From: an uncultured Acidobacteriota bacterium
GTDB lineage: Bacteria; Acidobacteriota; Thermoanaerobaculia; Gp7-AA8
DNA length: 64,000 bases
Assembly (NCBI GenBank): GCA_963822445.1
Contig: CAWGHO010000001.1
Location: forward strand, 1,195,967-1,259,966
Direction: 5' to 3'
Shown here one piece after another: positions 7,801 to 37,391 of this stretch. How positions within the stretch are numbered: the stretch's first letter is position 1; each line of letters starts with the position of its first letter. The position numbers and the translations under genes were made by a program. Under the pieces are notes generated by a model. That model had not been told where the DNA came from. It did no database searches and saw only the letters and a list, made by a program, of their open reading frames with translations.

Positions 7801-10240
7801 CGCGCGACACGCGCGTGACTTCCGATGCGAAGGCCGAAAGCTGATCGACCATCGTGTTGATCGTTTCTTTGATCTGCAGGATCTCGCCGCGGACGTCGAC
7901 CGTGATCTTGCGTGTCAGATCGCCGCTGGCGATTGCCGTCGCGACGCCGGAGACGTCACGCAACTGGACGGTGAGGTTTGAGGCCATGGAGTTGACCGAG
8001 TCGGTGAGGTCTTTCCACGTACCGGCGACGCCTTTGACCTCGGCCTGCACGCCGAGCTTCCCTTCCGTTCCGACTTCCCGCGCGACGCGCGTCACTTCGG
8101 CGGCGAAGGAGTTGAGCTGATCGACCATCGTGTTGATGGTGTTCTTCAGCTCGAGGATCTCGCCGCGCACTTCGACGGTGATCTTGCGCGACAGATCGCC
8201 GAGTGCGACGGCCGTCGTCACCTCGGCGATGTTTCGCACCTGCGCGGTCAGGTTGCCGGCCATGGCGTTGACCGAGTCGGTCAGGTCCTTCCACGTTCCT
8301 GCAACGCCAGGCACTTCTGCCTGACCGCCGAGCTGTCCTTCCGAGCCGACCTCGCGAGCGACGCGCGTGACTTCCGACGCGAACGCGCTGAGCTGATCGA
8401 CCATCGTGTTGATGGTGTTCTTCAGCTCGAGGATCTCGCCGCGGACATCGACGGTGATCTTCTTCGACAGATCGCCCATGGCGACGGCGGTGGTGACGTC
8501 GGCGATGTTTCGCACCTGCGCGGTGAGGTTGCCGGCCATCGAGTTGACCGAGTCGGTGAGGTCTTTCCACGTGCCGGCCACGCCTTTGACTTCGGCCTGG
8601 CCGCCCAGTTTTCCTTCCGTTCCGACTTCGCGGGCGACGCGCGTGACTTCCGAGGCGAAGGAGTTGAGCTGATCGACCATCGTATTGATGGTGTTCTTCA
8701 GCTCGAGGATCTCACCGCGGACTTCGACGGTGATCTTCTTCGAGAGGTCGCCCATGGCGACCGCGGTCGTGACCTCAGCGATGTTGCGCACCTGGTTGGT
8801 GAGGTTCGAGGCCATCGCGTTGACCGAGTCGGTGAGGTCTTTCCACGTGCCTGCGACACCGGGCACTTCGGCCTGGCCGCCGAGGCGTCCTTCCGTGCCG
8901 ACTTCGCGGGCGACGCGCGTGACTTCCGACGCGAACGCGCGGAGCTGATCGACCATCGTGTTGATGGTGTTCTTCAACTCGAGGACTTCGCCGAGCGCTT
9001 CCGCGGTGATCTTCTTCGACAGATCGCCGTTCGCGACGGCGGTCGTGACCTCGGCGATGTTGCGGACCTGACTGGTGAGGTTCGCGGCCATGTAGTTGAC
9101 CGAGTCCGTCAAGTCTTTCCACGTACCGGAGACGCCCTGCACTTCCGCCTGGCCGCCGAGTTTTCCTTCCGTACCGACTTCGCGAGCGACGCGGGTGACT
9201 TCCGAGGCGAAGGAGCGGAGCTGGTCGACCATCGTGTTGATGGTTTCCTTCAGCTCGAGGATCTCGCCGCGCGCTTCGACGGTGATCTGTTTGGAGAGAT
9301 CGCCGTTCGCGACGGCGGTGGTGACCGCGGCGATGTTGCGAACCTGATTGGTGAGGTTCGCGGCCATGTAATTCACGGAATCCGTCAAGTCTCTCCACGT
9401 ACCGGAGACACCCTGCACATCTGCCTGACCGCCCAGCTTTCCTTCCGAACCGACTTCGCGGGCAACACGGGTGACTTCCGAGGCGAAGGAGCGGAGCTGA
9501 TCGACCATGACGTTGATGGTGTTCTTCAGCTCGAGGATCTCGCCGCGCACTTCGACGGTGATCTTCTTGGAGAGGTCGCCGGTAGCGACGGCCGTCGTGA
9601 CTTCGGCGATGTTGCGGACCTGGGAGGTGAGGTTCGCAGCCATGAAGTTGACCGAGTCCGTCAAGTCTTTCCACGTACCGGAGACGCCCTTGACGTCGGC
9701 CTGGCCGCCCAGCTTTCCTTCGGTGCCGACTTCGCGAGCGACGCGCGTGACTTCCGACGCGAACGAGGCCAGCTGCGTGACCATCGTGTTGACTGTTTTC
9801 GCCGTCCGCAGAAACTCACCCTTGAGCGGCCGGCCGTCGAACTCGATGGCCATGGTCCGGGTGAGATCGCCCTTCGCGACCGCGCCGATGACGCGCGCGA
9901 TCTCGTTGGTGGGCTGGACGAGGTCGGTGACCAGGTTGTTGACCGCGTCGGCCATGACCGCCCACTGGCCGTTGGCCGCGGGAGCCTTCAGCCGCTCGTT
10001 CAGCTTTCCCTCTTTGCCGACGACCGTCGAGATGCGCTCGATCTCGGATGAGGTCCGCTCGTTGAGCTCGAGGATGTCGTTGAGAGTGTCGGAAATTTTT
10101 CCCTGAACGCCGGTGAAGTCGACGGGCATCCGCACGCGGAAATCGCCCTTCTTCATCGACGTGAGAGTGCGCAGCAACAGCCGGTCGAAGTCCTTCGGGC
10201 CAAGCTCAGTGGCCTTGTCGACGCCAATGCCCGTGGTCAT
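4625..10240 (-). CDS. Giant sensor kinase: N-terminal HAMP-like, then about 15 tandem HAMP repeats (poly-HAMP), GAF, an E/Q-rich coiled coil and HisKA; reading frame is lost near 4885
   Basis: 1871-aa ORF with a 92-aa (276-bp) unit repeated roughly 15 times (…[57 protein letters not shown]…). GAF region [17 protein letters not shown]…, H-box [14 protein letters not shown]. The frame is lost after LDLSKIES and continues in the fragments listed as pseudogene 2993..4887. Confidence 0.8.
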
Positions 10241-23898: not shown

Positions 23899-26021
<2,123 letters not shown>

Positions 26022-28483: not shown

Positions 28484-29611
28484 ATGTACAGGGCCGCACT
28501 GCTTTTCGTCCTTCTCCTTCCCACGTTTGCATTCGCCCAGGGCCGCCGCGATGGCGACTGGCGTGAGTTTCCCGCGCAGAAAGGGTGCGTCGGCGGCAGC
28601 CGCTGCGCCGACAAGCGCTTCCGCATCGCGCTCGATGACAGGCCGGTCATCGCCGTGCGATTCAGAGCGCATGATCAAATCGGCGAGACGGCCGGCGGCG
28701 TGTTGCGGGTGAAGATCGACGGCGACACGATCCGCGGCTACCTCGATATCCCCCGCGCCGGCGAGCTGTTCACGATCGACGTGGACGAGCTTCGCGGACG
28801 GCAGCTCGTGTTCGAGCCGGTCGCGAATGATGAAGTCGAGATCTCCGACATCGCGGTCATGTACAGCCGCGAGAATACGATCCGCCGCATCCCCGAGGCT
28901 CGTCGGGGCGGGCGGGGCGGCGGCGGACCGGGATGGCGCTCGTATCCGAATGCCTCCGGTTGCATCGGCGGCGACGGCTGCCGCCAGAACGGCACCCGCA
29001 TCACCATCCCTCTCGAAGAAGCCCCGGTCCTCGGCATCCGCTTTCACGCCCACGACAACGTCGGCAAACGCGCCGACGGCAAGCTGAGCGTGCGCATCGA
29101 CGACACGACCATCGGCTGGTCGATCGACGTGCAGCGCAACGGCAAGCGCCATGACGTCGAGGTGGACAACGTCCGCGGCACGCGACTGGTGATCGAGACG
29201 GCGAACGACGACGAAGTCGAAGTCAGCGACGTCGAAGTGCTTTACGGCCGCCGCGGCGGAGTGGGCAGCAATGGCCCGCGCGAGATCGAGCACGAAGGCG
29301 GATGCATCGGCGGATCGGAATGCGGCGGCCGCCGCAATCGCATTCGCGTGGCCCTGCGCGATTACCCCGTCGAATCGATCCGCTTCTACGCCCGCGACGA
29401 CGTCGGCACCAGGGCCGGCGGCGAGCTCCGCATCCGCATCGACGAGGAGATCCTCCGCGATTACCTCGACATCCCCCGCGAAGGCCGCACCTTCACCATC
29501 GACGGCAAAGGCCTGGTCGGCGAGTACCTGATCATCGAGACGACCGAGGATGACGAAGTGGTGATCCGGGACATCAAGGTGAAGTTCGGGACGGGGGAGT
29601 ACGACGATTAG
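28484..29611 (+). CDS. Secreted protein built from three ~120-aa internal repeats, function unknown
   Basis: Signal peptide MYRAALLFVLLLPTFAFA. Each repeat has the form GC(V/I)GG…C…R(I/F)…D.PV..IRF.A.D.(G/V)…G.L.(V/I)(K/R)ID…I……DI.R.G..F.ID……G..LV.E…DE(V/E)(E/V).SD(I/V)…. Confidence 0.7.
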   Translation: MYRAALLFVLLLPTFAFAQGRRDGDWREFPAQKGCVGGSRCADKRFRIALDDRPVIAVRFRAHDQIGETAGGVLRVKIDGDTIRGYLDIPRAGELFTIDVDELRGRQLVFEPVANDEVEISDIAVMYSRENTIRRIPEARRGGRGGGGPGWRSYPNASGCIGGDGCRQNGTRITIPLEEAPVLGIRFHAHDNVGKRADGKLSVRIDDTTIGWSIDVQRNGKRHDVEVDNVRGTRLVIETANDDEVEVSDVEVLYGRRGGVGSNGPREIEHEGGCIGGSECGGRRNRIRVALRDYPVESIRFYARDDVGTRAGGELRIRIDEEILRDYLDIPREGRTFTIDGKGLVGEYLIIETTEDDEVVIRDIKVKFGTGEYDD

Positions 29612-29955: not shown

Positions 29956-29962
29956 GTTAGCC
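29956..29962 (+). other. Core-site-like GTTAGCC marking the left boundary of the cassette array (an attC R' or attI-type recombination point)
   Basis: GTTAGCC is identical to the R' core of attC B and is the exact reverse complement of the R'' GGCTAAC found at the cassette ORF stops. GC content drops immediately after it. Confidence 0.4.
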
Positions 29963-29982
29963 AGACGTAAGATAAGCGACGC

Positions 29983-30603
29983 ATGAAATTGATTGCGATA
30001 CTTGAATCATGGGTCATTCCCGACGGAAGTTACCCTCCATTCGCTGTCGGAATGCCGGTAAACCTGTCTTTCGAGATGGCAGTGCGACAGATCTCTATCA
30101 ACGCCGCAGCTGAGGATTCGTTCGAATCGAATGGAGAGGGCGAGTACTCGTTTGCGGGCCGGGTTCTCGCAAAGTACAACGGTGGCGATCCGCTCGCGGT
30201 GGTCGAAGCAAGCGGGTTCCGCTTCTTCCTCGAAGGCACGCGCGCGCAGGAACTTCGCCCCGGTGAACGCGTTCAGGGACTAGGTTCTTTGGTGGTCGAC
30301 TACTACATATGGGTCGAATACGTCAACGAACGTCGTGAGGCGCCGGACCTTTTCTACAACTTGGGCGTTCGCCGTATTCGGCGCGTCCAGATTCCGGATT
30401 CTCTCGTCAGCCGTCACGCCACAGGCAAGGCGCTTCCTGCCCGAGTCGCGCCATCGGAGTTCGGCGCAATCACCGAGTTGCAGACAATGGTCGGACAGGA
30501 ATTTGACGAAGAGTTCTATCTCCTCGACCTAGAAACGACCGATCTAGCAGTGCCGCGGACTTTCTCGGGTGAGCCCCGCGAGTTCCGCCTTGAACGCAGG
30601 TGA
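29983..30603 (+). CDS. Cassette ORF of unknown function (206 aa)
   Basis: Intact ORF, GC about 50-55% against about 69% background. I found no recognisable motifs. Confidence 0.55.
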   Translation: MKLIAILESWVIPDGSYPPFAVGMPVNLSFEMAVRQISINAAAEDSFESNGEGEYSFAGRVLAKYNGGDPLAVVEASGFRFFLEGTRAQELRPGERVQGLGSLVVDYYIWVEYVNERREAPDLFYNLGVRRIRRVQIPDSLVSRHATGKALPARVAPSEFGAITELQTMVGQEFDEEFYLLDLETTDLAVPRTFSGEPREFRLERR

Positions 30604-30658
30604 TCACGGATGAGCGTACTTGTGCGAAAATGCGTAATGCCAGCTGAGGTTCACACTG

Positions 30659-31036
30659 TTGGATTCCGCCGAGATTGAACGAGCTGTTTGGGTTGCGACA
30701 GGCGTCGCGGCAATCACCGCGGCTCTGCTCACAGTCGTTGTGTATTACCTTCAACAACTTACCGTCGCCACCACCGGCATGCGCGTGCTTGGCAGCGTTG
30801 CCGCTTTGCTTCTGTCGTTCGGCGTCTACATCTTTGCGGCAGTCGTATTTTCTATCGTCATAAACGCACAGTTGCGGCAGACGAGTTCCGAGGGAGCGTT
30901 GAGCGTGCCTTGGTCAACTGTCTTCATTCACCCAGGGCCCTTGCACAAACTGGCACCCCTCTTCGCAATAGCTGCAACTTGGGCAACTCTTGCTTTCGTC
31001 GCTAGGCGACACCGTTCGCGAGAAATCGCTGGCTAA
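30659..31036 (+). CDS. Cassette ORF, small membrane protein (125 aa, 2-3 TM helices)
   Basis: Hydrophobic helices AVWVATGVAAITAALLTVVVYYL and LGSVAALLLSFGVYIFAAVVFSIV. The stop TAA is embedded in the attC inverse core GGCTAAC. Confidence 0.55.
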   Translation: MDSAEIERAVWVATGVAAITAALLTVVVYYLQQLTVATTGMRVLGSVAALLLSFGVYIFAAVVFSIVINAQLRQTSSEGALSVPWSTVFIHPGPLHKLAPLFAIAATWATLAFVARRHRSREIAG

Positions 31037-31968
31037 CTGTTGCGTCTCAGGACGTTGTTCCGATCCAGGCGACTGATGGGTGGATTGTAAGAGAGCGCGG
31101 TATGCGCTCGGTGGTAGTTGTAGAAGTGAAGGTACGGTGCGAGCCAACGGCGCCGTTCCTCGGAGCTGTGGTACGAGAACCGATAGGCCCATTCGCGCAG
31201 CAGCGTCTGGATGAACCGCTCCGCTTTACCGTTCGTCCGTGGTGTGTACGGCCGGATGCGGACGTGAGTGAGGTTCAGGCGGCTGCAGGTATCCCGGAAG
31301 TCGCGTGAGATGAAGGCCGATCCGTTGTCGGTCATCACCCGCTCGACGATGACATTCCGCTGAGCGAACCACGCCACCGCCCGAGTCAAAAACGAGCTGG
31401 CAGTCTCGCTACGCTCATCTGCCAGGACGTCGACGTAGGAGAGTCGGGTGAAGTCATCCGTCGCGACGTACACGAACTCGAAGCCCTGCTTCTTTGAGCC
31501 AAACGATCGACGCCTGGTGATGCGGTGTCCCACTCGATTGAACCGTCCCAGGCGCTTGATGTCGATGTGCACCAGTTCCCCCGGACGCTCCTTCTCGTAC
31601 CGAATTGGCACTGTTGCCGGCTCAAGCTGACGCAACCGAGCCAGCCCTGCTGACCGGCAGATCCGCGCTGCTGTCGACGCACTCACGCCCACTGCCTGCG
31701 CGATCTGTCGCACAGTCCGCCATTCGCGGCGAAGACTCAGAACACGCTGTCGTTTTATGTCGCTCGTGGCCCGGCCCCTGTGCGGTCTGGAGCTCCGATC
31801 GTTAAGCGGCTCGACCCTCAGACCACGACGGATCCACTCCCGCCCTCGCCGGTCACTCATACCGGCGGCCTCCGACGCCTCGCGCACCGACCATCCTTGT
31901 TCGCAGACTCGCTTGACCAGCAGTGCTCGACTCAACGGGCAGCTTCGCGCATTCTTGTGCACGTCCAT
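31033..31968 (-). CDS. IS481-family DDE transposase (integrase-core type)
   Basis: 311-aa ORF with an N-terminal helix-turn-helix and an rve integrase core (…HIDIKRL…VYVATDDFTRLSYV…TDNGSAF…). Its TAG stop lies in the duplicated target (plus-strand cta at 31033-35), as is typical for IS481. Confidence 0.85.
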   Translation of the reverse strand: MDVHKNARSCPLSRALLVKRVCEQGWSVREASEAAGMSDRRGREWIRRGLRVEPLNDRSSRPHRGRATSDIKRQRVLSLRREWRTVRQIAQAVGVSASTAARICRSAGLARLRQLEPATVPIRYEKERPGELVHIDIKRLGRFNRVGHRITRRRSFGSKKQGFEFVYVATDDFTRLSYVDVLADERSETASSFLTRAVAWFAQRNVIVERVMTDNGSAFISRDFRDTCSRLNLTHVRIRPYTPRTNGKAERFIQTLLREWAYRFSYHSSEERRRWLAPYLHFYNYHRAHTALSYNPPISRLDRNNVLRRNS

Positions 31969-32071
31969 CTGGGTTCCTTCCTGTCAACCTGTTCGTTTGA
32001 GAGCTTTCAGATTGACGAAAGTCGCCCGGATGGACAACCCGCTTCAAGGAACAACGTCCTGACACATCACA
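31038..32071 (-). mobile_element. IS481-family insertion sequence (1034 bp) with 25-bp imperfect terminal inverted repeats and a 6-bp target-site duplication GCTAAC
   Basis: Left end TGTTGCGTCTCAGGACGTTGTTCC; reverse complement of the right end TGTGATGTGTCAGGACGTTGTTCC. Flanking direct repeats GCTAAC at 31032-37 and 32072-77. It is inserted exactly in the attC R'' core. Confidence 0.8.
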
Positions 32072-32129
32072 GCTAACTACTGCCAGGAGCTGTCGGCGGG
32101 CCGTTCGCCGCGCCCGGCGGCCGAGCCGC
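32072..32129 (+). other. attC A, left (R''-L'') portion, between the two IS insertions
   Basis: GCTAAC-TACTGCCAGGAGCTGTCGGCGGGCCG…GCGGCCGAGCCGC. Together with 31031-31037 it reconstitutes GGCTAACTACTGCCAGGAGCTG, homologous to the left ends of attC B and C. Confidence 0.6.
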
Positions 32130-33456
32130 ATTCGCATTAAGTTAAGAGCCGGCGTACCCTAAGTGTATGAATCGACGGGTGGATGAGCGGGAGTGGATTC
32201 AGTATCAATGGGACTATCTGGTGGCGCTGCTGGGTGGCAAGCGGCGCATTGAGCGGCTGGCGTATGAGACCGGTGCATTTACGCGACGGCGGAAGGTCGA
32301 TAGTCCAAGTGATCTGCTGCGTCTGATCTTCACGTGGGCGGTTGCCGAACGGTCGTTGCAAGAGACTGCGGCCTTGGCTGCCGAGTCGGAACTGGCGGAT
32401 CTGAGCGCGCCCGCTCTGCTGGGCCGATTCTCACAGGCCGAGGCGTGGCTCGGGGCAGTTCTGGGTGATCTGCTCGCTGCGCGGAGCGCGGTCACCTACC
32501 GGGTACCGACGTCCGGTTAATCGATGCCACCTCAATCAGTTGCCGTGGCAGCAACAACACCGAGCGCCGGGTCCATCTCGCGCTGGATCTACGTACGAAC
32601 CGCACCACAGCGGTCGACCTCTCTGACCGGCACGGAGGCGAGACGCTGGAGCGCTTTGTCTTTCGTCCAGGGGAGATCGTGATTGCCGATCGCGGATATG
32701 CGAAGCGTAAGGACGTTGCGCACGTGTCGCGAAGCGGTGCATGGTTTGTGATCCGGATCGGCTGGACCAACCTGCCGCTCGAGCATCTGGACGGGGAACC
32801 TTTCGACCTGATTGGAACGCTTGGCGGCCTCCCTGAGGCGGCGGCTGCAGAGTTTTCCGTTCAGATTCGTACGGCGAAGGATGCGTTGGTGCCGTGCCCT
32901 GGTGGCTGTACGGAAGAGCGAACCAGCCGCCGAGCGCGCACGGCAGCAGATCCTCGCCGACGCCCGACGGCACGGCAATCCGCAGGTCGACCTGCGCACA
33001 CTCGAAGCCGCGGGGTGCATATTCGTCATCACCAATTTGCCCAACGAGATCTCGCCGAGAGCGTGCTGGAGCTCTATCGCCTACGGTGGCAGATCGAGAT
33101 CAAGTTCAAGACCCTCAAGTCCGTACTTCACCTCGGAAACCCGCCGACCCGAAGCGGCGAGCTGCTGAACGTTTATCTCATGGCGAAGCTGATCGTTGCG
33201 CTGCTGATCGAGGAGTTCATCTATCAGGCCGAGTCTATTTCCCCCTGGGGATACCCGCTCGAGGCCAATACAACCGTGGCGGCTGACGCGACTCCTGCTT
33301 GAAGCTGTGATCGCCGCAATCCGGCCAGTGCTGTCGCTGCGACTCCGCTGGAGTCGGCCCCTTCGCTGTTCCCGTCATCTTGCCCAAGCGAATAGAAGTC
33401 GACCAAACCAGCGCACGTCGGCACGCTACGTTACTGGAGACATAAGTTAATGCGAA
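32130..33456 (+). mobile_element. IS4-family insertion sequence (1327 bp) with 17-bp imperfect terminal inverted repeats and a 13-bp target-site duplication
   Basis: Left inverted repeat ATTCGCATTAAGTTAAG; reverse complement of the right end ATTCGCATTAACTTATG. Direct repeats GCGGCCGAGCCGC at 32117-32129 and 33457-33469. Confidence 0.75.
32167..33302 (+). pseudogene. IS4-family DDE transposase, one frameshift near 32470-32517
   Basis: N-terminal piece 32167..32520. Continuation LIDATSISCRG…IVIADRGYAKR…YRLRWQIEIKFKTLKSVLHL (DDE_Tnp_1 signature) runs in another frame from about 32517 to 33302. Confidence 0.7.
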
Positions 33457-33579
33457 TGCGGCCGAGCCGCCTACCACGTCCCGCGATGCACGGCGTCACG
33501 CCGCTTGCAACCGCGTCAACGTCAAATGCGGCAAGCGGCGTGCCGCGACTGCTCGCTCGCACGTGGGGCCTCGCCGCAG
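33457..33579 (+). other. attC A, right (L'-R') portion, ending in the core GTTCGTC
   Basis: …ACGGCGTCACGCCGCTTGCAACCGC…CCGCAGCTCAGGCGATAGAC-GTTCGTC is homologous along its length to attC B (…ACGGCGTCACGGCGGTTGCAGG…GCGCAGCTCAGGCGATAGAC-GTTAGCC). Confidence 0.6.
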
Positions 33580-34011
33580 CTCAGGCGATAGACGTTCGTC
33601 GAGAAGCACCCTTTCCATGAACGCTTCGTATCTCGCACGTTGAACGCGTGCGTGGCGCGGCGCCGCGCCCAGGCGACGCGGACGCACGACTTCCAACCGC
33701 GCACAATTCGCTCGATGAAATAGACGGAGGTTTGCGAATCGGTTCGGGCAACATGGCAAAGCGCCAAGCGCCCCATCGGTGGCATCTTCAATCTAGCGCA
33801 TCTCACGCGATCACCCTACTGTCCGCATGCCATTCAAACCGCGCAATAGACGGCGACCTCTATCGTTGCGGTGGTCGCTAAGCCAGTGCGTCTATTGGTT
33901 ATTCGGTCGACGAACACAAAAAGCTTAAGGTGGCTTTATGGGAGCCCGACCGCGCCTGACTCACGCCGCAGGCCGAGTGTCGGACGATCACATGCTATTC
34001 TTGATCTGCCG

Positions 34012-34545
34012 ATGCAGAGCTCGAGAGGCATAGTTGTACGTGCAGCGACTTGGGTGGTCGCGGCCTTCCTTGCTTCGGGGTTCCAATTTTCAACCTCCGC
34101 GCAGGAATCGCAGCGTCTCACGGCAAGCGATGCATTCGCCATGTACTCATCGATGCTTGCCGAGATTTCACACGCGTCGCTCGACGACTTTAAAACTGTC
34201 ATCGGCTTGCTTGAACGAGACGGCTTCCGAAAGGCGTCCGACAACTCCTGGCGTTTCCGAAACGAAAGCGGCAGCGTCGTCGTCGCCGCGTACCCAGAGC
34301 AGGGATCGTACTTTGTCTCGCTTGCGCCCAAGAATACAGGTCCGTTCGGCGATGCTGCTCTGGCCGCCCTGATAGCCAAGGCGGAGGCAGTCATGCTCGA
34401 CAGCGGCGGACAATCCATCGAGATATTGCTTCGCCGATCGAACCAGCAACGTCTTGGGAAGACCGTCGAGGTCAGCGAGTACATCTACGTCGCCCTGAAT
34501 GGTGCCATCTGGTGGCGAACGTCACGCGCAATCGTATGGCGCTAA
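34012..34545 (+). CDS. Cassette ORF: secreted or periplasmic protein of unknown function (~177 aa)
   Basis: Start chosen at MQSSRGIVVRAATWVVAAFLASGFQFSTSAQ (signal-peptide-like); the tool's ORF begins at a GTG at 33871. Stop TAA at 34543-45, just before the attC. Confidence 0.5.
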   Translation: MQSSRGIVVRAATWVVAAFLASGFQFSTSAQESQRLTASDAFAMYSSMLAEISHASLDDFKTVIGLLERDGFRKASDNSWRFRNESGSVVVAAYPEQGSYFVSLAPKNTGPFGDAALAALIAKAEAVMLDSGGQSIEILLRRSNQQRLGKTVEVSEYIYVALNGAIWWRTSRAIVWR

Positions 34546-34550
34546 ACGCG

Positions 34551-34748
34551 GCATAACTACTGCCAGGAGCTGTCGCGGCCCGGCTTCGGTCCGCCGGCCG
34601 AGCCGGCTGCTTTTTCGCCAGAGGGACGGCGTCACGGCGGTTGCAGGTCGCCACTCGCTGCATCGCAGTTCATTGGCGGCAACCGCCGCGCCGCTCCGGC
34701 TTCGGCGCGCGGGCCCTGGCCGCGCAGCTCAGGCGATAGACGTTAGCC
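34551..34748 (+). other. attC B (~200 bp): R'' GCATAAC … R' GTTAGCC
   Basis: The reverse complement of the left end, CAGCTCCTGGCAGTAGTTATGC, pairs with the right end CAGCTCAGGCGATAGACGTTAGCC with extrahelical bulges, an attC-like imperfect palindrome. Confidence 0.6.
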
Positions 34749-34847
34749 TGACACCGAGAGAGAGCGCCAGAACTCATACTTTCGAGCGCCGCATCCCGAT
34801 GACGTACTCGTGACGTAAGTCTCGGCACTCGTGTAAGATCGTTCGCA

Positions 34848-35072
34848 ATGCCACAAGCCTTCGACACCTCGCCGCGCGCAGCAGCCGTACACGCCCAGCT
34901 CTATCGTGACATCGGCCCAGCGAAGCGAGCTGAAATCATGGCGGAGCTCAGCGACGCGCTACGAGATCTCGCTGCGGCCGGCGTCCGGCGACGACATCCT
35001 GAGTACGATGACGAGCGTGTTCGAAAAGAAGTCCTCGCGGTCTTCTATGGCCGCGGTCGAACGTCGCTGTGA
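34848..35072 (+). CDS. Small cassette protein (74 aa), putative antitoxin partner of the downstream nucleotidyltransferase
   Basis: 4-bp ATGA overlap with the next ORF. The size and position match MenA-type antitoxins placed upstream of MenT-type toxins. Confidence 0.45.
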   Translation: MPQAFDTSPRAAAVHAQLYRDIGPAKRAEIMAELSDALRDLAAAGVRRRHPEYDDERVRKEVLAVFYGRGRTSL

Positions 35073-35626
35073 GCCTCCGAGACGCTTTTCGAAACATGCG
35101 AGATGCTCTTGAGGAGCTTGGAATACCGTACATGGTGACGGGTTCCGTCGCGAGCTCCGTGCACGGTGTTCCGCGAGCTACTCAAGACATCGATGTGATC
35201 ATCGAGCCGACACGTGACCAGCTAGTTGCGCTCTTAAACAGGTTTTCCGAACCAATCTACGACGCCGATCGCGACGACGCTTTGGATGCTCTCAATCGAC
35301 GATCAATGTTCAGCGTGATCGATCGCAGAGGCATATGGAAGATCGACTTCATCGTTCGCAAGCAGCGTCCGTTCAGTAAGAAAGAATTTGACCGACGGGT
35401 GAGAATCGATATTCTCGATGTTTTAGTGTATTCGGCGACACCGGAAGATGTACTCCTTGCAAAGCTCGAGTGGGCGAAATTGGGTGAATCCGAACGCCAG
35501 ATCCGTGATGCTGCAGGCATCATCGAAATTCAGGGCGAGAAGCTTGACCGTGAGTATGTGGAGCGGTGGGCCGCAGCCCTGGATATTGAGGATCAATTGC
35601 ACGCAGCACGAGCAAAGGCAGGCTAA
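35069..35626 (+). CDS. Pol-beta superfamily nucleotidyltransferase (185 aa), MenT/AbiEii-like putative toxin
   Basis: GSVASSVHGVPRATQDIDVII fits the hG[GS]x9-13DhD NTase motif, followed by KIDFIV (third acidic residue). The stop TAA lies inside the attC core GGCTAAC. Confidence 0.55.
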   Translation: MSLRDAFRNMRDALEELGIPYMVTGSVASSVHGVPRATQDIDVIIEPTRDQLVALLNRFSEPIYDADRDDALDALNRRSMFSVIDRRGIWKIDFIVRKQRPFSKKEFDRRVRIDILDVLVYSATPEDVLLAKLEWAKLGESERQIRDAAGIIEIQGEKLDREYVERWAAALDIEDQLHAARAKAG

Positions 35627-35794
35627 CTACTGCCCGAGGCTGTCGGAGAGCCGTCTGCCGCGCCCGGCGCTGAAGCGCCTCGTGAAGCGTTGCTTGCCCG
35701 CGGAAGGCCGGCCATCCCTACGCGCCACGGCGCCGAGGAGCGCGCCACGCAAACCCTACCCACGCGGAACCTCGCCGCATCTCACGCGTTAGAC
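35621..35794 (+). other. attC C (~170 bp): R'' GGCTAAC … R' GTTAGAC; last attC of the array
   Basis: GGCTAACTACTGCCCGAGGCTGTCGG … CGCCGCATCTCACGCGTTAGAC. More diverged than A and B, but the same architecture. Confidence 0.5.
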
Positions 35795-35853
35795 GCTGGA
35801 TTGCCCTCGATTCCGATAGCATCGAGCCCCGTAGCCGTCAGGGAGGGAGAAAG

Positions 35854-37020
35854 ATGACGTACCGCGTTCTTATATTCACCTTGCTCGCGCTCTGCGTGAG
35901 CGCAACCGCCGCGTCGCAGCCGGTCGTCGTCGGGCAAAGCCACCGCCTTCGTTCATCGGTCCTGAACGAAGACCGCACTTACCGCGTTCATCTTCCGGCG
36001 AGCTATGGATGGGCGAAGGATCGGCGATATCCGGTTCTGTACGTGCTCGATGGCGCGACGCATTTTCTGCACACGTCCGGGTCCGCCGGCTATCTCGCGG
36101 CGCAGGGCGAGATCCCGGAAATGATCGTGGTTGCGCTCGACAGCACCGTCCGGATCAGAGACTTCACCCAGTCGGACTGGTCGAGCGCATGGGTTGGAGG
36201 AGGGGGCGCGGCGAACTTCAAGCGCTTCCTTTCCACCGAGCTCATTCCGAACATCGAGCGCGCTTATCGCACCAACGGGTTCCGCGTGCTGGCCGGCCAC
36301 TCCGCCGGTGGACAGTTCGTCCTGTACTGCCTCACCTCCGAGCCGTCTCTCTTTCAGGCCTACATGGCGTTCAGCCCGAGTCTCGACTGGGACGACAACC
36401 TGCCCCAGAAATCGCTGGCCAAATCGTTCGACTCGACGCGCTCGCTGAAGGCGTTTCTGTACGTCGCGCGATCGGATGATTCCGGCCGCGCATTGGAGGA
36501 TTACGACCGGCTGGTGGAAACCCTGAAAACGAAATCGCCGCAGGGATTCCGCTGGCACAGCCAGCCCTATCCTGACGAAACCCACGGCAGCATTCCTTTG
36601 CTCGCACAGATCGATGCCCTTCGCCGACTGTACTCCGGTTACCGGTTTCACGGAGACCTGGTGTCGAAGGGCCTCGACTTCGCGGAGAAGCATTTCGAAG
36701 AGGTCTCCAGGACCGTGGGATGGCCTCTGCCCGTTCCCGAAAGCGTGATCAACGATTTCGGTTACGACGCGCTGGCGGCGGGGAAAACGGAAGCTGCCAT
36801 TACTCTCTTCACGCGCAACGTTCTGGCGAATCCGAATTCCGCCAACGCCTACGACAGTCTGGCGGACGCGTATGAAAAGGCGGAGAACTGGAAAGAAGCG
36901 GCAAAAGCAGCAGAGAAAGCCGCCGCTCTGGCTATAGAGTTCGACCTTGCCAACCGGGAGTACTTCATTCAGCACGCCGCAAAAATGAAGGCCCGGCTCG
37001 AACAGGAATCGAAACCATGA
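35854..37020 (+). CDS. Secreted 'putative esterase' family alpha/beta-hydrolase (enterochelin-esterase / esterase-D-like) with a C-terminal TPR region
   Basis: Signal peptide. YPVLYVLDGATHF, and GHSAGGQFVLYCL (a GxSxG nucleophile elbow). Confidence 0.75.
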   Translation: MTYRVLIFTLLALCVSATAASQPVVVGQSHRLRSSVLNEDRTYRVHLPASYGWAKDRRYPVLYVLDGATHFLHTSGSAGYLAAQGEIPEMIVVALDSTVRIRDFTQSDWSSAWVGGGGAANFKRFLSTELIPNIERAYRTNGFRVLAGHSAGGQFVLYCLTSEPSLFQAYMAFSPSLDWDDNLPQKSLAKSFDSTRSLKAFLYVARSDDSGRALEDYDRLVETLKTKSPQGFRWHSQPYPDETHGSIPLLAQIDALRRLYSGYRFHGDLVSKGLDFAEKHFEEVSRTVGWPLPVPESVINDFGYDALAAGKTEAAITLFTRNVLANPNSANAYDSLADAYEKAENWKEAAKAAEKAAALAIEFDLANREYFIQHAAKMKARLEQESKP

Positions 37021-37391
37021 TCAACGGCTTTCACGGCGTTCGCTATCAGGTGAAGGATGTCGCCCGATCGATCGACTTCTACACCGAACATCTCGGCTTC
37101 AAACTGGAGCACAAGCAGCTTCCCGCGTTTGCCGCTCTTTCCCTCGGCGCGCTCCCGCTCCTGCTGAGCGGGCCCGGCGCTTCGGGCTCGCGTCTCGTCA
37201 ATGGCGAGCCTCAGGAGCCGGGCGGCTGGAATCGCATCGTTCTTCGCGTTGCCGATCTTTCGTCATTCATCGAGGCCCTAAGCAAGGCCGGTCTCCGGTT
37301 TCGAGGCGAAATGCAGGTTGGCCCGGGAGGAAAGCAGATTCAATTGCTCGACCCCGACGGCAATCCGATCGAGCTATTCGAGCCGGCCTAG
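37017..37391 (+). CDS. VOC/glyoxalase-bleomycin-resistance family protein
   Basis: 124 aa with a betaalphabetabetabeta module (FHGVRYQVKDVARSIDFYTEHLGF…). ATGA overlap with the esterase gene. Confidence 0.75.
   Translation: MINGFHGVRYQVKDVARSIDFYTEHLGFKLEHKQLPAFAALSLGALPLLLSGPGASGSRLVNGEPQEPGGWNRIVLRVADLSSFIEALSKAGLRFRGEMQVGPGGKQIQLLDPDGNPIELFEPA

Follow-up and report, generated by a model that had tools for sequence, protein, structure and literature searches.

A probable integrase-less integron cassette array with long attC sites in a soil acidobacterial lineage

Can a row of short palindromic repeats be recognised as the remains of an integron when no integrase is found beside it and, if so, what has become of the array? 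This question is raised by a stretch of 64,000 nucleotides from an uncultured Acidobacteriota bacterium of the class Thermoanaerobaculia (GenBank assembly GCA_963822445.1, contig CAWGHO010000001.1, positions 1,195,967 to 1,259,966), which we call the window. An earlier note, made from the letters alone, had read positions 29956-35794 of it as a cassette array in which three sets of open reading frames (ORFs) are each followed by an element resembling attC, the recombination site of integron cassettes. Our analysis indicates with high confidence that the locus is a chromosomal cluster of attC sites without an integron integrase (a CALIN), one of the type that soil Acidobacteriota of this class carry. 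Several lines of evidence support the reading: related repeats adjoin integron integrase genes (intI) on two other contigs, relatives of the repeats are matched by a model made from class 1 attC sites, the ends of neighbouring copies complement each other as integron recombination predicts, the arrays are unidirectional, one cassette recurs in another array, and the window holds no intI.

Layout of the array and its repeat family

The array lies on the plus strand within positions 29956-35801 of the window and consists of three gene cassettes with five ORFs, each cassette being capped by one copy of a repeat family. We refer to these copies as A, B and C; they are 189 nt (A, once two insertion sequences (ISs) have been excised), 198 nt and 181 nt long. 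The claim that three homologous elements follow the ORF sets was borne out in three ways. The 12-mer CTAACTACTGCC occurs, with at most one mismatch, at 32073, 34553 and 35623, 0.93 matches being expected by chance; A, once freed of both ISs, can be aligned colinearly from end to end with B, C and the copies from metagenomes described below; and a covariance model built from A, B, C and three metagenome copies (hereafter the family model) gave strong matches across the window at A, B and C only. Two weaker matches, at 24187-24310 and 33632-33690, were dismissed as covering only the inner part of the model or as short GC-rich palindromes, the first of them lying inside a histidine-kinase gene. 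No Rfam family matched the array region.

On its left the array begins at 29956-29962 (plus strand), where GTTAGCC follows sequence unlike attC, a junction either of attI type or at a secondary site. Cassette 1 (29957-31030, plus strand, 56.5% G+C) carries ORFs 29983-30603 and 30659-31036 and is followed by attC A, whose 5' box (R'') is GGCTAAC and whose 3' box (R') is GTTCGTC. Cassette 2 (33595-34550, plus strand, 58.5% G+C) has the single ORF 34012-34545 and ends in attC B (34551-34748, plus strand; R'' GCATAAC, R' GTTAGCC), which scores 161.5 bits with the family model. Cassette 3 (34743-35620, plus strand) holds the overlapping gene pair 34848-35072 and 35069-35626 and ends in attC C (35621-35801, plus strand; 132 bits), whose R'' box GGCTAAC contains a stop codon and whose 5' half is conserved while its 3' half has diverged. 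The gap from A to B is 950 bp and that from B to C is 872 bp; 2.4 kb of IS DNA interrupts A itself. The G+C content had been put at about 69% outside the array and about 55% inside; the drop is present but smaller, from 65-66% in the flanks to 56-58.5% in the cassettes, the repeats themselves standing at 70-71%.

Scanning metagenomes with the 5' motif returned six true relatives, on soil and rhizosphere contigs (L004-L009). The boxes of the metagenome relatives are all of the form G[CG]CTAAC and GTTAG[GC]C. The copy on L004 is a 98-nt version without the long inner hairpin. On L008, a 1.3-kb soil contig, the match at 424-553 keeps the 5' half and runs into unrelated sequence after about 95 nt; it may be an interrupted or truncated attC. 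The family model found five copies on one strand of L006, and the longer contig to which this was extended, L010, carries seven, with one more detected by BLAST, all on the minus strand. A 14.9-kb contig, L024, is a single array of ten full copies and one cut by the contig end, and on L028, a contig of 5.03 Mb, three copies follow an intact 320-aa integron integrase (IntI) on the same strand. The arrays of the family are unidirectional, with ORFs alternating with repeats at a spacing of 0.8-1.3 kb. Among one genome for each of 185,579 species no true family copy was found with the 5' motif; two hits, in Campylobacterota and Saccharimonadales, were dismissed as foreign to the family because about four were expected by chance.

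Integrases, recombination logic and geometry of the repeats

Imperfect palindromes that are GC-rich, 130-200 nt long and strongly conserved in sequence are also what would be expected of miniature inverted-repeat transposable elements (MITEs), repetitive extragenic palindromes (REPs) or another palindromic intergenic family merely resembling attC, and it is against this alternative that the relatives have to be read. Two of their arrays begin directly after an integron integrase, a position that a MITE or REP family does not lead one to expect. The L010 integrase (9068-10029, minus strand), which adjoins an array of at least eight cassettes, is split by a single frameshift near residue 120 into an N-terminal and a C-terminal ORF, which match the integron integrase model TIGR02249 with 139 and 253 bits, respectively; apart from this it is well conserved, with the IntI-specific insertion retained. 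The frameshift could mark a pseudogene or an assembly error, and the same sequence is present in an independent ENA assembly, L011; since L010 and L011 are identical in sequence, cassette contents could not be compared between them. The L010 integrase has thousands of homologues at 68-88% identity, several of them annotated 'integron integrase [Thermoanaerobaculia bacterium]'.

In both L010 and L028 intI is transcribed toward the cassettes, with 85-105 nt between its stop codon and the attI crossover. In L010 about 90 nt separate the intI stop codon from GATAGA|GTTAGCC, where the first cassette begins, and the attI junctions, GATAGAGTTAGCC in L010 and TTCAAGTTAGCC in L028, have the same layout as the left boundary of the array in the window. 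An intI transcribed toward attI and the cassettes characterises integrons of the Treponema denticola type (PMC3607928). L010 and L028 share with that type an intI lying directly upstream of the array on the cassette strand; they belong to another host phylum, and the feature is theirs and not that of the window, which has no intI. A third contig with an integrase, L027, stops about 240 bp past intI; such an end would be expected if assemblies break at repeated attC sites. Lying next to IntI genes matching TIGR02249 in L010 and L028, the repeats are candidate substrates of an integron integrase and probably attC sites.

A second line of evidence comes from the way in which neighbouring copies fit together. 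In integrons strands cross over within R', between its G and its TT, which makes the final six bases of every site part of the cassette that follows. The R'' box of a site should accordingly complement the R' box of the previous site and not its own. In L024 the R'' box is a perfect complement (7/7 bases) of the previous R' in 9/9 cases, including all four (4/4) that discriminate between the two patterns, in that the site's own 3' box differs. Four of the five discriminating cases in L010 comply, the attI junction included, as does one of the two in L028. In the window, where cassette 1 begins at TTAGCC, the R'' box of A exactly complements the boundary GTTAGCC at 29956 (7/7, against 4/7 with its own GTTCGTC), and GGCTAAC of C complements GTTAGCC of B (7/7). 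Of the 14 discriminating cases over all loci, 11 follow the rule. Were the repeat a self-contained transposable palindrome, the opposite pattern would be predicted; the rule therefore counts against a MITE or REP family.

The family was also compared with attC sites of known kind. We built a covariance model from ten class 1 attC sites only, taken from annotated plasmids (aadA1, aadA2, aadA5, aadB, gcuF, blaVIM-2, aacA4, dfrA12, aac(6')-29a and arr-3), with a structure that specified the R box, the bulged L box and two additional pairs. The training sites scored 55-66 bits and a held-out site, the dfrA5 attC, 26 bits, against a background of about 13 bits, and the correct strand scored about 50 bits above the opposite one. 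This class 1 model matched five L010 copies and the L004 copy with 9-22 bits, at the start, end and strand given by the family model, and 9/10 copies of L024 at the family-model coordinates with 7-23 bits and E-values down to 5e-4. All these matches were on the correct strand only, save for one L024 copy that had a weaker match on the opposite strand as well.

The geometry of the 5' arm explains these matches. In the class 1 sites (n=10) R'' is 7 nt long and L'' 8 nt, a 5-nt spacer stands between them, and the base at top-strand position 16, within L'', is unpaired. By inspection, family copies share this arm, reading GCCTAAC-TTTGG-TGT-C-AAGC paired with GCTTACA, with TGT-C/G-AAGC variants and the bulge at position 16; the L box of the aadA site used for comparison is GTT-C-AAGC paired with GCTTAAC. 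A variant L box, CC-AG-GAGC paired with GCTC-A-GG, is found in A, in B, in one L024 copy and in one L010 copy, and by inspection amounts to a mismatch at position 15 followed by the bulge at position 16. The family thus resembles class 1 sites such as those of aadA1, aadA2, aadB, aacA4 and blaVIM-2 in its R'' (RYYYAAC) and R' (GTTRRRY) boxes, its 5-nt 5' spacer, its 8-nt L'' with the unpaired base, and a stop codon that often falls inside R''. It differs in length (181-198 nt in the window against 57-114 nt), in the AG opposite A of the L boxes of A and B, and in its interior, which is branched and contains two hairpins conserved in sequence, GGGGCTGAAGCCCC or its variant CGGCGGCCGAGCCGCC, and ACGGCGTCACGCCGCTTGCA...TGCGGCAAGCGGCGTGCCGC.

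Several observations weigh against the identification of A, B and C as attC sites, or complicate it. The class 1 model gave no full-length match to any of the three, only a 10-bit partial match inside B, a failure that counts in favour of a MITE or REP family, and it missed as well the L024 copy that carries the same AG-bulge L box. Its scores for the relatives (7-23 bits) overlap the noise at about 13 bits. The 3' spacer of the family is 8 nt, against 5-6 nt in class 1 sites. Site B breaks the rule of complementary ends, its 5' box being a poor match to the start of its cassette, and C folds no better than shuffled sequences (z +0.9). Since the L024 copy with this L box was missed too, we attribute the failure of the class 1 model on A, B and C to the AG bulge, together with the longer 3' spacer and an insert of about 150 nt. 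The scores of the relatives carry force because the family-model coordinates and strand were matched exactly, and the membership of A, B and C follows from their homology to copies that pass the class 1 model and that share arrays next to an integrase.

Set against the whole of this evidence a MITE, REP or similar family is highly improbable. The earlier note had named dispersal in non-cassette contexts with target-site duplications of the repeats' own as what would overturn its reading; in the loci found, all copies stand in tandem unidirectional arrays alternating with ORFs and none is dispersed, they have no target-site duplications, and their ends complement the neighbouring copy. The class 1 model, moreover, matches the relatives at their exact ends and on one strand, and the lack of a true copy in the scan of 185,579 species argues against a widespread genomic repeat.

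Damage to the sites, the missing integrase and the origin of the array

Of the three sites B alone is intact; A is disrupted and C degenerate. Site A is now in three pieces, all on the plus strand. The first (31031-31037) is the R'' box, which contains the stop codon of ORF 30659-31036 and into which an IS481-family element of 1034 bp (31038-32071, minus strand) has inserted. The second (32072-32127; family-model match from 32071) comprises the second copy of the GCTAAC duplication, the 5' spacer, the L'' box, the outer stem and the start of the first inner hairpin, in which a decayed IS4-family element of 1332 bp (32128-33459, plus strand) is lodged. The third (33460-33600; match 33417-33600) holds the second copy of a 9-bp duplication, the inner hairpins, the L' box, the 3' spacer and the R' box at 33594-33600. 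Excision of both ISs is supported by the target-site duplications that flank them, the 6 bp GCTAAC at 31032-31037 and 32072-32077 in one case and the 9 bp GGCCGAGCC at 32119-32127 and 33460-33468 in the other. The reconstructed site is 31031-31037 joined to 32078-32127 and 33469-33600, and the junction GCGCCCGGCGGCCGAGCCGCCTAC that removal restores occurs also in uninterrupted copies of L024.

The IS481-family element retains inverted repeats and an intact 311-aa transposase gene (31033-31968, minus strand), whose product matches NF033577 transpos_IS481 with 263 bits (cutoff 224) and the Pfam families LZ_Tnp_IS481 and rve. The IS4-family element also has inverted repeats; its transposase is in fragments, with a match to Pfam DDE_Tnp_1 and one of 66.9 bits, below the cutoff, to NF033592 transpos_IS4_1. 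Two different ISs have thus landed in one 189-nt attC site. The point about 22 bp inside the IS481 element at which a short Logan contig from the same strain stops suggests several copies of this element in the genome.

The three claims made earlier about the ends of the sites held in part. The inverse core contains the ORF stop codon in A and C, as proposed, but in B the stop codon (34543-34545) lies 6 nt upstream of GCATAAC. The 3' ends of A (GTTCGTC) and B (GTTAGCC) stand as matches to GTTRRRY, whereas GTTAGAC of C aligns with GATAGAC, the heptamer before R' in A and B: the R' position of C by homology is GCTGGAT (35795-35801), in which the GTT has been lost, and GTTAGAC stands 7 nt upstream of it. 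Pairing of the ends with attC-like bulges is supported for A and B, which, folded as single-stranded bottom-strand DNA and compared with 200 shuffles each, gave z -3.8 (A without its ISs) and z -4.8 (B) with 0/200 shuffles as stable; the ends of C are unpaired. Across copies the outer stem shows one compensatory change, from G:C to A:T.

The absence of a tyrosine recombinase from the window, also claimed earlier, was confirmed. A scan of the 64 kb for tyrosine-recombinase motifs found none, a tblastn search of them with IntI1 (the probe having been verified as 100% identical to annotated IntI1) gave a best E-value of 1.7, and one with the L010 IntI returned nothing credible, which leaves the 30 kb upstream of the array and the 28 kb downstream of it without an integrase gene. 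Without a tyrosine recombinase in the window the array qualifies as a CALIN. Such loci, defined by two or more attC sites without an integrase, numbered 279 in a 2016 survey (PMC4889954) and 2,961 in a 2022 survey (PMC9024848), and those of about 5-6 sites are common (PMC4889954, PMC9024848). With its three family copies the array resembles them in having at least two attC sites less than 4 kb apart and no intI nearby, in its small size, in cassettes that carry no resistance genes and in the presence of ISs; it differs in that one of three sites is intact, in sites of about 190 nt and in a host that apparently belongs to a poorly sampled acidobacterial lineage.

By the established mechanism of integrons, the array would have arisen as follows. 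The unit would be a gene cassette, one or two promoterless ORFs with an attC of 181-198 nt, and cassettes would have been inserted one by one by an integron integrase. The bottom strand of attC would fold into an imperfect hairpin, the integrase binding the paired R and L boxes; the choice of strand would be read from the extra-helical base in L'', and strands would be exchanged between the G and the TT of R'. What is left now appears to be a frozen remnant, whose cassettes would move only with an integrase supplied in trans, and then probably poorly. Judging from the damage, the array is decaying and essentially immobile, because A is split by 2.4 kb of IS DNA, C cannot fold and lacks its GTT, and the 5' box of B is mismatched.

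How the array came to stand without its integrase is a question on which two explanations compete. The first, which we regard as a real possibility although short of an even chance, is that the array is a detached part of a complete integron, or a deposit from one at a secondary site, with intI elsewhere on the 1.58-Mb contig or in the genome. The array may, in particular, have arrived as a multi-cassette circle inserted at a genomic GTT; the left junction would then not be an attI, the cassettes may still be mobilisable in trans, and the uninterrupted ancestral spacer would read ...CCGGAGAG|TTGGAT.... In keeping with this, the 344 bp upstream of GTTAGCC have no similarity to intI and are similar only at noise level to the attI regions of L010, L027 and L028, and the start of the downstream esterase gene lies 53 nt past the end of attC C, as expected for an intergenic insertion. 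Secondary-site integration and rearrangement are both listed as origins of CALINs by Cury et al. (PMC4889954), and about half of all CALINs are in replicons that encode an IntI (PMC4889954). On the other side, the homologous right junction reads GCT and not GTT, and none of the 120 best IntI homologues lies on a contig of the length of the source contig, which is a weak objection given more than 8,000 homologues.

The second explanation, which we hold more tentatively, is that the array is what remains in situ of a complete integron whose integrase gene was deleted while the attI crossover GTTAGCC at 29956 was kept. The left junction is indeed attI-like, non-attC sequence being followed by AGAGTTAGCC, which has 10 nt in common with the attI junction of L010 cited above. 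ISs have been active locally, as the two in the array show, and could drive deletions, and the decay of the sites fits a long period without an integrase. Set against it are the lack of any intI pseudogene or fragment in the 64-kb window, uninformative because such pseudogenes lie near only 5% of CALINs (PMC4889954), and an upstream spacer without significant attI similarity. The short distance between the intI stop codon and the crossover in the L010/L028 clade favours the secondary-site explanation, since loss of intI would need a very precisely placed deletion. With the upstream spacer at noise level, an attI remnant and a secondary site are not told apart.

Cassette genes, chromosomal setting and place among known integrons

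The two ORFs of cassette 1 encode proteins of 206 aa (29983-30603) and 125 aa (30659-31036), the latter hydrophobic, and that of cassette 2 (34012-34545) encodes 177 aa, with an alternative upstream GTG start possible at 33871. In cassette 3, the first gene (34848-35072) encodes 74 aa and the second (35069-35626) a 185-aa nucleotidyltransferase of Pfam family DUF6036; no Pfam, NCBIfam or PADLOC family matched the four other cassette proteins. A scan for promoters and terminators gave nothing above chance, and no Pc-like promoter was identified in it.

The cassette 3 pair recurs in L024 (77% and 81% aa identity), again as a cassette followed by attC and among other neighbours, and, like that of the window, has its stop codon inside the attC 5' box. 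Soil metagenomes are rich in homologues of the window's nucleotidyltransferase, which are found under the name Thermoanaerobaculia as well. On L025 (9786-10570) a 72-aa gene and a nucleotidyltransferase gene form a chromosomal pair at 81% identity, beside genes for a major facilitator superfamily transporter and an aspartyl-tRNA synthetase and without attC; this pair may represent the source of the cassette, or it may be a former cassette whose site is gone. Its partner gene has a weak match to the Rv0078B antitoxin, a slender hint that the cassette 3 pair may be a module of toxin-antitoxin kind. The cassettes of the window would be cargo, one of them possibly a toxin-antitoxin-like nucleotidyltransferase pair.

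Related arrays carry cassettes with more readily named products. TIR-domain cassettes (CAP12-PCTIR_TIR and TIR_2) lie at 1385-3294 of L010 and 11137-12132 of L028, and the cassettes of L024 include several toxin-antitoxin pairs (PIN, BrnT/BrnA and Gp49/HTH). Both kinds fit reports that chromosomal integrons store defence and addiction modules.

The flanks of the array are ordinary chromosomal genes. Upstream these encode an FGGY kinase, a GAF histidine kinase, a beta-helix protein, a PRMT-like methyltransferase and a 375-aa protein with three repeats; downstream they encode the esterase, a glyoxalase and a Ser/Thr kinase with TPR repeats. The 375-aa protein (28484-29611), encoded just upstream of the array, has three internal repeats of about 120 aa (e.g. 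...RFRAHDQIGETAGGVLRVKIDGDTIRGYLDIP...) and no Pfam match. The esterase/TPR gene (35854-37020) and the overlapping glyoxalase gene, which together span 35854-37391, have 60.6% G+C, a value above that of the cassettes and below that of the flanks. The convergent kinase gene overlaps the end of the glyoxalase gene, which is why no attC comes after the two genes.

Among known systems, the sedentary chromosomal integrons (those with the Vibrio cholerae repeats of Vibrio, or those of Xanthomonas) offer a close comparison. As in these, the attC sites of one lineage are highly conserved within and between arrays, and most cassettes have no annotated function, with toxin-antitoxin-like and TIR-domain cassettes in the related arrays; the array in the window differs in being short and without an integrase. 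Sites of about 190 nt are reportedly near the upper attC size accepted by IntegronFinder. For the phylum itself, an Acidobacteria-specific attC model has been published by Ghaly et al. in 2021 (PMC8352920). The array is therefore of a kind already known, and mildly unusual in the length of its sites (181-198 nt), their branched inner structure and 8-nt 3' spacer, the two ISs within one attC, and the host lineage.

A bolder reading, which we consider unlikely, would make sites of 181-200 nt a distinct class of attC, with a three-way junction, two conserved inner hairpins and an 8-nt 3' spacer, served by a very large, uncharacterised clade of Thermoanaerobaculia integrases co-oriented with their cassettes, in which the hairpins would act beyond recombination. 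Were this so, the inner hairpins may bind a host factor, insulate transcription between cassettes or aid the genesis of cassettes.

The reading of the locus as a CALIN leaves the current understanding of integrons unchanged. CALINs are regarded as reservoirs from which integrons can draw cassettes, and the array in the window documents an end state of such a reservoir, with two ISs inside one attC, a decayed terminal site and no integrase in the window. Its lineage is one of soil Acidobacteriota, in which integrons appear abundant but unstudied. The family of repeats is a well-defined one of long attC sites with intact integrase partners, that of L028 and its close homologues P0125 and P0126, and could be used to test how the length of attC and its branched inner structure affect recombination.

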